A stretch of DNA of 64,000 nucleotides from a virus (taxonomy: Duplodnaviria > Caudoviricetes). The notes beneath the pieces are model-generated. The model was not told where the DNA came from. It searched no databases and saw only the letters and a program-made list of their open reading frames with translations. Within the stretch, counting starts at the first letter, position 1. The number at the start of each line of letters is the position of its first letter. A program made the translations under genes and the position numbers. The stretch covers positions 1 through 64,000 of IMG/VR virus record IMGVR_UViG_2814123203_000002; one strand, written 5' to 3'. Positions 7,915 to 64,000 of the stretch are shown one piece after another.

Positions 7915-7944
7915 TTTACACATTTCCATATCCTGTGTTATTAT
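7915..7944 (+). promoter_or_regulatory. SigA-type promoter for repeat-mimic RNA 1
   Basis: TTTACA-N18-TATTAT with TGn extension; ACACA...TGTGT arms in the spacer. Confidence 0.55.
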
Positions 7945-7953
7945 GGAGACACC

Positions 7954-8020
7954 AACGCAGGGCGTATTGAAATTTATTCATTTGCTTAAACTTTGACCGT
8001 AACGCATGGCGTTTTGAAAT
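7954..8020 (+). CRISPR. Mini array: two degenerate CRISPR-like repeats with a 17-nt spacer
   Basis: AACGCAGGGCGTATTGAAAT (7954-7973) and CTTTGACCGTAACGCATGGCGTTTTGAAAT (7991-8020); ACGC/GCGT stem and (A/T)TTGAAAT 3' end as in class 1 Cas6-processed repeats. Confidence 0.6.
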
Positions 8021-8038
8021 ATGCGTCTTGTGCTTTGT

Positions 8039-8066
8039 AAAAACCCTACCTTATGGTAGGTTTTTT
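8039..8066 (+). terminator. Terminator of repeat-mimic RNA 1
   Basis: CCTACC-TTAT-GGTAGG followed by a T-tract. Confidence 0.75.
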
Positions 8067-8097: not shown

Positions 8098-8127
8098 TTG
8101 TACCACATCCAAAAGATGTGCTATAAT
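8098..8127 (+). promoter_or_regulatory. SigA-type promoter for repeat-mimic RNA 2
   Basis: TTGTAC-N18-TATAAT with TGc extension; CACATC-N5-GATGTG palindrome in the spacer. Confidence 0.7.
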
Positions 8128-8133
8128 TCAATT

Positions 8134-8167
8134 GTCGCACCCCACTTGGTGGTGCGTGGTTTGAAAT
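8134..8167 (+). CRISPR. Solitary type I-C-like CRISPR repeat
   Basis: GTCGCACCCCACTTGGTGGTGCGTGGTTTGAAAT matches the I-C pattern GTCGCAC...GGTGCGTGGATTGAAAT; starts at the predicted +1. Confidence 0.8.
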
Positions 8168-8181
8168 AAATTTACTTTTAT

Positions 8182-8219
8182 GAGGAAACCTATCTTTATA
8201 AAGATAGGTTTCCTCTTTT
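8182..8219 (+). terminator. Terminator of repeat-mimic RNA 2
   Basis: Perfect 16-bp stem GAGGAAACCTATCTTT/AAAGATAGGTTTCCTC followed by TTTT. Confidence 0.8.
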
Positions 8220-8224
8220 AAAGA

Positions 8225-8513
8225 ACCCCACCTAAATGGTAGGGTTTTTGCTTACCATAGATGGTTTATATCGTAGGTCTGAGACTCCTCGCCGTCCCAT
8301 TCACTTATGTATTCCTCTATTGTATTGCGCACGTGTTCCCCTGCTTTTCGATACGACATCCCAATATGATCAGCTTCTCCATACACATGGCTCTTGAGGC
8401 AGCCCATATCAAAAAATATGTGCGGCTTGTCAAGTACCACTAAACAGCAAGCCTTGATGATTAGTGTGGGTAAATGCGTACCCTTCTTGATTTACATAAA
8501 GAATAGTCCCCCA
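8225..8513. repeat. Segment with a diverged, internally deleted copy at 63358-63509
   Basis: Shared hairpin, TTGCTTACCATAGATGGTTT, AAAAAATATGTGCG, CCTTGATGATTAGTGTGGGTA and TACATAAAGAATAGT blocks in the same order. Confidence 0.85.
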
Positions 8514-8550
8514 GTCGAACGACTGAGTAAATGCTTTCTTTAGTTCATCC

Positions 8551-8820
8551 TTATACTTTACTTTCCTCCTTAAGATTCAAATATCTTTTATGGTAGTATT
8601 GCTGACATTCTGAGCAATACTCAGGGTTTTCTTTGTTCCCGTGTGGGGATGATGGAAAGTCCATCTGTCCGCCGCATTGAGGACATAACCCTTTCTCTGT
8701 ACGTTCTTCTCTAATTCTCCTTTGCCTGGTTCTCTCAAAGCACTTTCGAGAGCAGTCTACTGCCCGAGGATGTTTGGAAACAAAAGATTTTTGACAATCG
8801 GGAGCTATACACTTTTTCAT
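8551..8820 (-). CDS. Small double zinc-finger-like protein
   Basis: Four Cys pairs: CIAPDC, CSRKC, CPQC, CSEC. Confidence 0.65.
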   Translation of the reverse strand: MKKCIAPDCQKSFVSKHPRAVDCSRKCFERTRQRRIREERTEKGLCPQCGGQMDFPSSPHGNKENPEYCSECQQYYHKRYLNLKEESKV

Positions 8821-9132: not shown

Positions 9133-9213
9133 GTTGTAATTTAGTACCTATTAAGGAATTGAAACATGGATTTGTATTTTATCTGTTATGAAATACCTAT
9201 AAGGAATTGAAAC
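9133..9213 (+). CRISPR. Mini array: two type I-B-like repeats with a 19-nt spacer
   Basis: GTTGTAATTTAGTACCTATTAAGGAATTGAAAC (9133-9165) and GTTATGAAATACCTATAAGGAATTGAAAC (9185-9213) fit the GTTT...TACCTATAAGGAATTGAAAC family of Bacillota. Confidence 0.8.
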
Positions 9214-9266
9214 AACTAATCCAATGTTTCTTTAGAAGAACCCATTATTTTTTGGGGCGACCGCCC

Positions 9267-9915: not shown

Positions 9916-10128
9916 ATGCTGAGCTTTGATCCTCTACGTGAGTGGTTTAACAAAACGGGAAGACAACGCACTGATATGTATATAGACTGCGGATTCGCTC
10001 CGCAAACAGTCGCGAAAGTATGGGGAGATCGGTTTCCGATACGAACCGATGTGATAGAGAAAATCTGCGAAACATATGGCCTGCGGATCGAGCAGGTACT
10101 TGTTTGGAAAAACGAGGAGGATAAGTAG
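9916..10128 (+). CDS. Small Cro/C1-type HTH protein
   Basis: MLSFDPL...GFAPQTVAKV...TDVIEKICETYGLRIEQVL is an HTH_26-like pattern; GAGGTG RBS. Confidence 0.8.
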   Translation: MLSFDPLREWFNKTGRQRTDMYIDCGFAPQTVAKVWGDRFPIRTDVIEKICETYGLRIEQVLVWKNEEDK

Positions 10129-63925: not shown

Positions 63926-64000
63926 TTTAATATCCTTCCTTTCTTAATTCATGTCGATATGCGCCGAGTTGTTGTAGGTAACGGTCTGCTAATGGTTTGT

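Follow-up and report, generated by a model that had tools for sequence, protein, structure and literature searches.

A crRNA-like unit on a probable phage-plasmid of Paenibacillus larvae

The stretch of DNA analysed here, hereafter the window, comprises 64,000 nucleotides (nt), positions 1 to 64,000 of the IMG/VR virus record IMGVR_UViG_2814123203_000002 (Duplodnaviria; Caudoviricetes). At positions 7915 to 8066 it carries a compact element resembling a CRISPR RNA (crRNA) gene, which we term unit A: a promoter, a 5′-shortened repeat (psiR1), a short guide (psiS), a complete repeat (psiR2), a tail that may be a second guide, and an intrinsic terminator (Table 1). All of these elements lie where an earlier note on this DNA, made from the letters alone, had placed two repeats, a 17-nt spacer, a 20-nt tail and a terminator. 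The transcription start that it had predicted inside the first repeat agrees with a consensus promoter whose -10 box and start region overlap the 5′ part of psiR1, and this promoter is conserved in the phages SV21, Unity and Scottie and in the provirus of genome G402. psiR1 consists of the hairpin ACGC-AGG-GCGT and the 8-nt handle ATTGAAAT.

The 19-nt repeat core ACGCNNGGCGTWTTGAAAT occurs in two copies in the window and in none of 100 shuffles. No Rfam family reached its gathering score in the window, and at E values up to 1 no match to unit A or to the neighbouring unit B was obtained between 7700 and 9400, where psiR2 of unit C alone showed likeness to a CRISPR repeat family. A long-range pairing between psiR1 and the tail, dependent on G-U pairs and without covariation, was set aside on these grounds.

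Over its first 20 kb the window matches, at 100% identity, the Paenibacillus larvae plasmid pPLP3, a circle of 128,414 bp annotated with genes for a DNA-packaging protein, tape measure, tail spike, XhlA, PolIII alpha, NrdEFI, DnaB, YopX, YonK and ParM. Because phage structural genes and plasmid partition genes are both annotated, pPLP3 looks like a phage-plasmid. It contains no cas operon and no CRISPR array, and neither repeat recurs in the 100.8-kb record; unit A is encoded on a plasmid or virus outside any CRISPR-cas locus. The host of pPLP3, P. larvae SAG 10367, is the strain with the largest reported spacer load, 169 (PMC7998209), and is named as a carrier of type I-B and type I-C systems (10.1101/2021.05.04.442622). 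A Cmr cluster has been reported from two P. larvae strains (PMC3944939).

Unit A lies within a stretch (6-12 kb of the window) whose G+C content is 36-39%, against about 30% in its surroundings, and whose DNA is 80-88% identical to the P. larvae phages SV21, Scottie, Heath/Halcyone and Unity. DNA matches to this stretch were obtained in 8 of 50,697 records, every one of them a P. larvae phage, and in those phages the homologous units sit directly downstream of the lysin gene.

Table 1. Features of the three RNA units, with coordinates in the window
Feature	Position	Strand	Description
Unit A promoter	7915..7944	+	TTTACA, 18 nt, TG-n-TATTAT; 10/12 consensus matches, upstream TG
Unit A psiR1	7946..7973	+	5′-shortened type I-B-like repeat; 3′ end ..ACGCAGGGCGTATTGAAAT at 7973
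Unit A psiS (guide)	7974..7990	+	17 nt, TTATTCATTTGCTTAAA
Unit A psiR2	7991..8020	+	complete 30-nt type I-B-like repeat, CTTTGACCGTAACGCATGGCGTTTTGAAAT
Unit A tail, possible second guide	8021..8040	+	20 nt, ATGCGTCTTGTGCTTTGTAA
Unit A intrinsic terminator	8045..8066	+	hairpin 8045-8060 (6 pairs, 4 G-C), then TTTTTT
Unit B extended -10 box	8119..8127	+	TGCTATAAT; conserved as TATAAT in Scottie and Heath; missed by the promoter scan (weak -35)
Unit B solitary repeat	8134..8167	+	type I-C-like, GTCGCACCCCACTTGGTGGTGCGTGGTTTGAAAT; same family as the G115 arrays
Unit B 17-nt segment and terminator	8168..8222	+	perfect 17+17 hairpin; fold z-score -8.05
Unit C psiR1	9136..9165	+	..GTACCTATTAAGGAATTGAAAC
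Unit C guide	9166..9182	+	17 nt, ATGGATTTGTATTTTAT; identical in 4/4 copies (window, Scottie, SV21, G402)
Unit C psiR2	9183..9213	+	Rfam CRISPR-DR2, 28 bits, below the gathering score of 37
Unit C tail and decayed terminator	9214..9262	+	

The repeats of unit A belong to the type I-B family

Repeat arrays were searched in a sample of 401 Paenibacillaceae genomes. Arrays of the pattern ACCGTAAC-N7-GTATTGAAAT (also written CTTTGACCGTAAC-N7-GTATTGAAAT), with a period of about 66 nt, gave 62 matches in genome G188, 56 in G198 and 30 in G309; at least one match was present in 33 of the 401 genomes, most of them single and probably due to chance. The repeat of the G188 array, CTTTGACCGTAACAGATGATGTATTGAAAT, which alternates with spacers of 35-37 nt, is identical to psiR2 at 25 of 30 positions, and the array repeat of a second genome, G596, at 24 of 30. 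Two of the differences between psiR2 and the array repeats form a compensatory pair.

Both arrays adjoin type I-B cas genes. In G188 these are cas6-cas8b-cas7-cas5b-cas3-cas1b, of which Cas5b (124.8 bits against a cut-off of 97), Cas1b (378.6 against 304.1) and the Cas3 domains exceed their profile cut-offs, with Cas6 and Cas7 below theirs. The G596 operon reads cas6, cas8b, cas7, cas5b, cas3, cas4, cas1b and cas2, followed by five repeats GTTTGACAGTAACACATGGTGTATTGAAAC, and its profile scores are 125.6 for Cas5b, 370.2 for Cas1b and 65.5 against 65 for Cas4, with the Cas3 domains again above their cut-offs. Because arrays of the same family adjoin I-B operons in both genomes, the unit A repeat is assigned to the type I-B family of Paenibacillaceae, settling a choice between I-B and III that could not be made by eye in the earlier note. 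This is a subtype that has been reported for the host strain.

Covariation across 16 repeat copies from phages and arrays supports the 4-bp hairpin stem. One pair is A-U in 10 copies, G-C in 5 and G-U in 1, the next is C-G in 8, U-A in 5 and unpaired in 3, and two of the four pairs are altered on both sides. Stem positions are paired in 95.3% of cells, compared with 84.4 ± 2.1% in shuffles (none of 500 reached the observed value), and sliding the partners out of register lowers pairing to 6-70%.

Beyond these arrays, a degenerate repeat pattern found 8 loci in IMG/VR that resemble chance hits in coding sequence, and a scan of genome contigs for the repeat core gave 6 single hits, of which only a P. 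kribbensis scaffold end is related. That end (L010 1-200, minus strand) bears three I-B-type repeats, whose compensatory stems differ and whose "spacers" contain hairpins, and the opposite end of the same 14.5-kb scaffold bears an identical repeat.

The guide recurs in a crRNA-like gene next to cas6

A P. larvae chromosome was found neither in the 401-genome family sample of G001 nor in the genera of G198 (21 genomes), G001 (93), G400 (74) and G399 (116). Among the 401 genomes of an order-level sample, G596 (4.29 Mb, a single contig) is the only one to match the holin and lysin DNA of Scottie, at 90-92% identity, and on this similarity we regard it as P. larvae itself or a very closely related organism.

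The 17-nt guide psiS has exactly one perfect match in G596, at C1:245967-245983, where the estimated chance expectation is about 5e-4; at up to three mismatches it has 53 matches, compared with 39 for a reversed control. The perfect match lies on the strand opposite to cas6, about 120 nt from its start codon, within a unit composed of a promoter (TTGAAA-17-TACACT), a first repeat ending in ..GACCCTAGCGCAAGGCGCATTTAAAT, the guide TTATTCATTTGCTTAAA and a second repeat CTCTAACCGTAACGTAGGACGTTCTTCTAAT. This host unit aligns with those of the window, SV21 and G402 across psiR1, psiS and psiR2. The guides are shared at 17 of 17 positions, where at least nine nucleotides proximal to the protospacer-adjacent motif (PAM) are looked for in viral Cracr RNAs. 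The handles in unit A (ATTGAAAT) are more canonical than those of the host gene (ATTTAAAT and TCTTCTAAT), and unit A, unlike the host gene, has its own conserved promoter and terminator. Guide identity, together with the alignment to the cas6-proximal gene, marks unit A, judging from sequence, as a mobile copy of a host crRNA-like regulator gene.

The control region of G596 that contains this gene (L173 7790-8100, equal to C1:245790-246100) lies between an upstream array and cas6. It comprises the divergent crRNA-like gene, a TCA-flanked target, a strong promoter facing cas6 and a short hairpin-ended unit, a composition that makes it a candidate CreR or CreTA module. A similar arrangement is seen in the I-B locus of G188 (L049 10040-10215), where a divergent crRNA-like gene stands beside cas6 and the first 15 nt of its guide recur 100 nt downstream after TCA. 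Both loci resemble the published host CreA (the CreTA antitoxin) and CreR (a cas autorepressor), whose guide, set between degenerate repeats, matches a site close to a promoter beside the cas genes (10.1101/2024.10.29.618823). CreA and CreR genes reside inside CRISPR-cas loci, whereas unit A resides on a phage-plasmid with a promoter and terminator of its own.

Unit A varies among mobile relatives

The guide is identical in SV21 and carries a single change, at position 12, in the provirus of G402. The tail ATGCGTCTTGTGCTTTGTAA is conserved at 19 of 20 positions in SV21 and at all 20 in G402, which in addition holds a paralogous variant, S3. Repeat number differs between copies, with four in G402, two in the window and in SV21, and only a promoter stub in Scottie and Unity. 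In G402 (L099 4205-4478, minus strand) the unit takes the form of an array of four repeats, which includes three distinct compensatory stems and a pair of paralogous guides resembling the tail; the window copy resembles what a deletion within such an array would leave. Unity (L003 3060-4800) and Scottie (L002 1440-1500) retain only the promoter and the first 15 transcribed bases, followed in Unity by transposase genes.

Such variable content, the homology to a host gene across psiR1-psiS-psiR2 and the decayed terminator of the neighbouring unit C would all suit a passenger, that is, a host creA- or creR-like gene picked up through chromosomal recombination and now functionless. A relic of this kind would not be expected to have gained a conserved promoter and terminator that the host gene lacks, nor better handles than its source and compensatory changes in its stems. 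In several phages, moreover, unit A shares its place downstream of the lysin gene with two other units that mimic repeats, and we regard the passenger explanation as improbable.

A putative target site differs from the guide at positions 6 and 12 only

On the same strand as the host gene and 84 nt past it, G596 carries the site TCA+TTATTTATTTGTTTAAA, whose differences from the guide are confined to positions 6 and 12. Type I effector complexes flip out every sixth base of the guide, which stays unpaired. The guide change in G402 also falls on position 12, and the probability that two random columns would both fall on {6, 12} of 17 is 1 in 136. The check suggested in the earlier note, a search with a PAM demanded and mismatches tolerated at every sixth base, is positive in G596 for the 17-nt segment; for the 20-nt tail no target was found in G596, pPLP3 or the carrier phages. 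That note had proposed either a decoy or a repressor acting on a promoter of the host, for instance that of cas, and the identity of the guide with that of a cas6-adjacent gene, together with the TCA-flanked site, lends the repressor proposal support at the sequence level.

The same pattern bears on whether unit A might be a pure decoy of the Racr kind, whose repeats would draw Cas6, Cas5 and Cas7 off into aberrant complexes and whose 17-nt segment would serve only as a spacer of suitable length without a target. Repeat mimicry is clear, the adjacent unit B is built around a solitary repeat, as published Racrs are (PMC10651486), and no target was detected for the unit A tail or for unit C. A length-only role is nevertheless disfavoured because it would not give the 6/12 pattern: the guide is identical at 17 of 17 positions to a host regulatory guide, and all variation between copies and target lies at positions 6 and 12. 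Sequestration of Cas proteins is, besides, a part of the regulatory interpretation that we favour and not an alternative to it, which leaves the pure decoy an unlikely account.

The target lies 11 nt behind the -35 box of the cas6-facing promoter (TTTACA-16-TG-n-TATAAT, 11/12 consensus), and because of this position a complex bound there could hinder that promoter in the manner of CreR. Downstream, on the target's own strand, is a short unit ending in a strong hairpin and a T run (fold z-score -3.83), an arrangement reminiscent of a small toxin of the CreT type that CreA controls. The promoter repressed would be either the cas6-facing one or that of the short toxin-like unit, and in either case occupancy of the site would be maintained by a guide copied onto a mobile element.

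Searches of other sequences for targets bear on two further explanations. On pPLP3, the two 17-mers and three tails had no match within three mismatches besides the units themselves and a few sites with two or three mismatches; the best other psiS site on the 128-kb plasmid, TTATTCATTTGTTTAGT at plasmid position 71304, has three. As a self-regulation or addiction module, the guide could employ the Cascade of the host to repress one of the plasmid's own genes, a mode of action seen in host CreTA-type modules (10.1101/2024.10.29.618823). With no better site than this one on the plasmid and none in the carrier phages, such a role seems very improbable.

A mini-CRISPR array for interference against competing phages or plasmids would likewise show the repeat-spacer-repeat layout on a mobile element, and arrays of this sort are mentioned as known in inter-viral and inter-plasmid conflicts (PMC10651486). 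The spacer here is far below normal length, at 17 nt compared with 35-37 nt in the genuine arrays of the family. Within three mismatches, psiS matched nothing in SV21, Scottie, Unity, Heath and G402 except the units themselves, and the 12 IMG/VR loci with the exact 17-mer all lie in unrelated contexts. Interference against competitors can hardly be the role of unit A on this evidence. A metagenome scan for the handle joined to the guide start found 9 loci, none with an upstream repeat hairpin.

Two further matches to psiS were noted at or within cas genes. At the cas4/cas1 junction of G596 (L173 15793-15809) lies a psiS-like site with one effective mismatch, at position 7, and the flank TGC, and the interior of cas1 in G198 (L051 8123-8135) contains a 13-nt seed match; these may represent chance or a second target.

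Two further repeat-mimic units lie downstream

The island holds three repeat-mimic RNA units: unit A, unit B with its solitary type I-C-like repeat, and unit C, a second mini-array with a 17-nt guide. The arrays that share the unit B repeat, in G115, adjoin cas3-cas5c-cas8c-cas7c-cas4-cas1c, and all four proteins scanned there scored above curated cut-offs. Homologues of unit B are present in Scottie and Heath/Halcyone; the type I-C repeat pattern had no hits in G596. Unit B is solitary in the published sense of having no partial repeat within 100 bp, which does not apply to unit A with its two repeats 17 nt apart.

Unit-B-like elements, which form a conserved family, were also observed in the Paenibacillaceae genomes G198, G196, G245, G006 and G025 (L052, L053, L054, L056 and L059). 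Each consists of a TATAAT box, then a short hairpin repeat (GTCGC..GCGTGGATTGAAA), a segment of about 17 nt and a terminator (GAAACCTATC..), and in none of these five genomes does the 17-nt segment have a second copy.

Unit C differs between carriers. Its copies in Scottie and the G402 provirus have a clear TTGACG-17-TATACT promoter and a good terminator, whereas in the window copy half of this terminator's stem is missing and the upstream region is different. Arrays of its repeat family occur in G158 and G126, in the latter flanking Cas10/Csm1, Csm2, Csm3, Csm4 and Cas6, each above its cut-off, and G596 has one solitary repeat of the family. The unit C guide has no target in G596 (26 hits at two mismatches, compared with 20 for the control), and of the 63 IMG/VR loci containing the exact 17-mer, only the G402 locus (L099) is a unit. 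For the tails of units B and C, the scan covered loci L173 and L174 only. The unit C tail AATCCAATGTTTC (9214-9230 compared with 9161-9172) comes close to the reverse complement of GAAAC+ATGGATT, which joins the end of the 5′ tag to the guide start, as it also does in Scottie; with such an anti-tag-like tail, type III complexes could be kept in a "self" state.

Taken as a whole, the island may act as an RNA counter-defence with three prongs, where unit C (9136-9235) would mimic a crRNA against a Cas6/type III system and the second guide of unit A would be aimed at variant control regions of other strains. The type III reading of unit C is prompted by the csm operon adjoining its repeat family in G126, the guide invariant in 4 of 4 copies and the anti-tag-like tail. 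We consider this wider proposal speculative and rather doubtful. The Cracr and Racr literature, in the parts drawn on here, lists no crRNA-like regulatory anti-CRISPR for type III.

Several protein-coding features were observed on the same element. A Cro/C1-type helix-turn-helix gene (9916-10128, plus strand; Pfam HTH_26, 31.8 bits) lies near the RNA units, in a position typical of anti-CRISPR-associated regulators. At 8236-8560 on the minus strand, tblastn detected a homologue of a 105-residue SV21 gene, located between units B and C and split over two frames; it matched no Pfam family. A gene of 107 residues at 63927-64000 and beyond (G000 63927-64250, minus strand; L064 19092-19415) matches only the C-terminal 90 or so residues of Cas8c/Csd1 (PF09709, score 27.7 bits, cut-off 27; positions 456-547 of the 559-position model). 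Its product might act on its own, as a fragment resembling a small subunit that interferes with type I-C complexes.

Unit A as a probable type I-B relative of viral regulatory RNAs

Viral Cracr RNAs with guides of 17-21 nt have been reported to act as repressors of cas or creT promoters, deepening Cas autorepression or silencing the safeguard toxin while competing with immune crRNAs; most viral type I-F guides are of this length (10.1101/2024.10.29.618823). Like CracrIF2 and the prophage type I-E Cracr array described there by Liu et al., unit A is borne by a virus or plasmid outside a cas locus, has a repeat-guide-repeat form that copies host CreA or CreR, and combines a guide too short for interference (17 nt compared with 35-37 nt in array spacers) with far more than nine PAM-proximal nucleotides shared with a host guide. 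Further likenesses are the multi-guide, array-like form with four repeats in G402 and the presence of other anti-CRISPR candidates nearby, and the paralogous variant of the tail fits the arrays of that preprint whose guides are aimed at variants in related strains. It departs from the published Cracrs in belonging to type I-B of P. larvae, in a host guide that is equally short, and in a tail guide that ends in a terminator instead of a repeat. The preprint predicts I-B candidates, and the word "Paenibacillus" does not occur in its main text.

The Racrs or solitary repeat units, such as RacrIF1 and RacrIC1, are promoter-driven repeat mimics on phages and plasmids, often beside anti-CRISPR genes (Camara-Wilpert et al. 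2023, PMC10651486). Unit B fits this description, whereas unit A has two repeats 17 nt apart and a guide with a host counterpart; the SRUFinder program of that work sets such two-repeat cases aside as mini-arrays.

Virus-borne mini-CRISPR arrays share with unit A the repeat-spacer-repeat form on a virus without cas genes. They carry full-length spacers against rival viruses, whereas the unit A guide has 17 nt and matches a control region of the host. The class of RNA to which unit A appears to belong is already known from the Cracr preprint and the Racr paper; unit A adds a type I-B example at the level of sequence, for which mimicry is strongly supported.

On balance, we interpret unit A, with a probability of roughly 0.7, as a type I-B crRNA-like regulatory RNA borne on a mobile element and copying a host regulator next to cas6. 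We infer that it is transcribed, processed by Cas6, loaded into Cascade and able to repress, to the benefit of the plasmid or phage. Its own promoter would drive transcription, and host Cas6 would cleave at both repeat hairpins, yielding one product with the 8-nt handle, the 17-nt guide and a 3′ hairpin and a second with handle, tail and terminator. Both products would be loaded into host Cascade. With a guide about half as long as the 35-37-nt spacers of the family, the complex would bind without cleavage by Cas3 and would occupy TCA+TTATTTATTTGTTTAAA in the control region between the upstream array and cas6. Unit A most likely turns the type I-B machinery of the host into a harmless repressor instead of a weapon.

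Several observations weigh against this interpretation. G596 is not the strain that carries pPLP3, and the match is a counterpart at the species level only. The host guide also has 17 nt, so that the rule of viral guides being shorter than host guides, reported for type I-F, is not seen here. The target site covers neither the -10 nor the -35 box of the cas6-facing promoter, and the promoter that overlies the site on the minus strand is a weak match to consensus. The tail had no target in G596, where all 14 of its matches have three mismatches (9 for the control). Promoter-like hits are not enriched between 7000 and 9500 (9 observed, compared with 8.5 ± 2.9 expected from shuffles), and the promoter call consequently rests on its consensus and its conservation in relatives. 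Finally, known copies of unit A on mobile elements number three.

Implications for P. larvae and its phages

For a comparison of mobile RNA and host locus, the system is favourable in that the host counterpart, the PAM and the target site are all readable from sequence, and the pattern at every sixth position provides an internal control. The module beside cas6 in G596 is a candidate CreR or CreTA system in a Gram-positive bee pathogen.

P. larvae causes American foulbrood, and phages are in development as treatments. CRISPR spacers against P. larvae phages have been seen as an obstacle to phage treatment (PMC7998209). The P. larvae phages SV21, Scottie and Heath/Halcyone, the provirus of G402 and the 128-kb phage-plasmid may carry RNA tools that blunt the type I-B, type I-C and possibly type III systems of their host.

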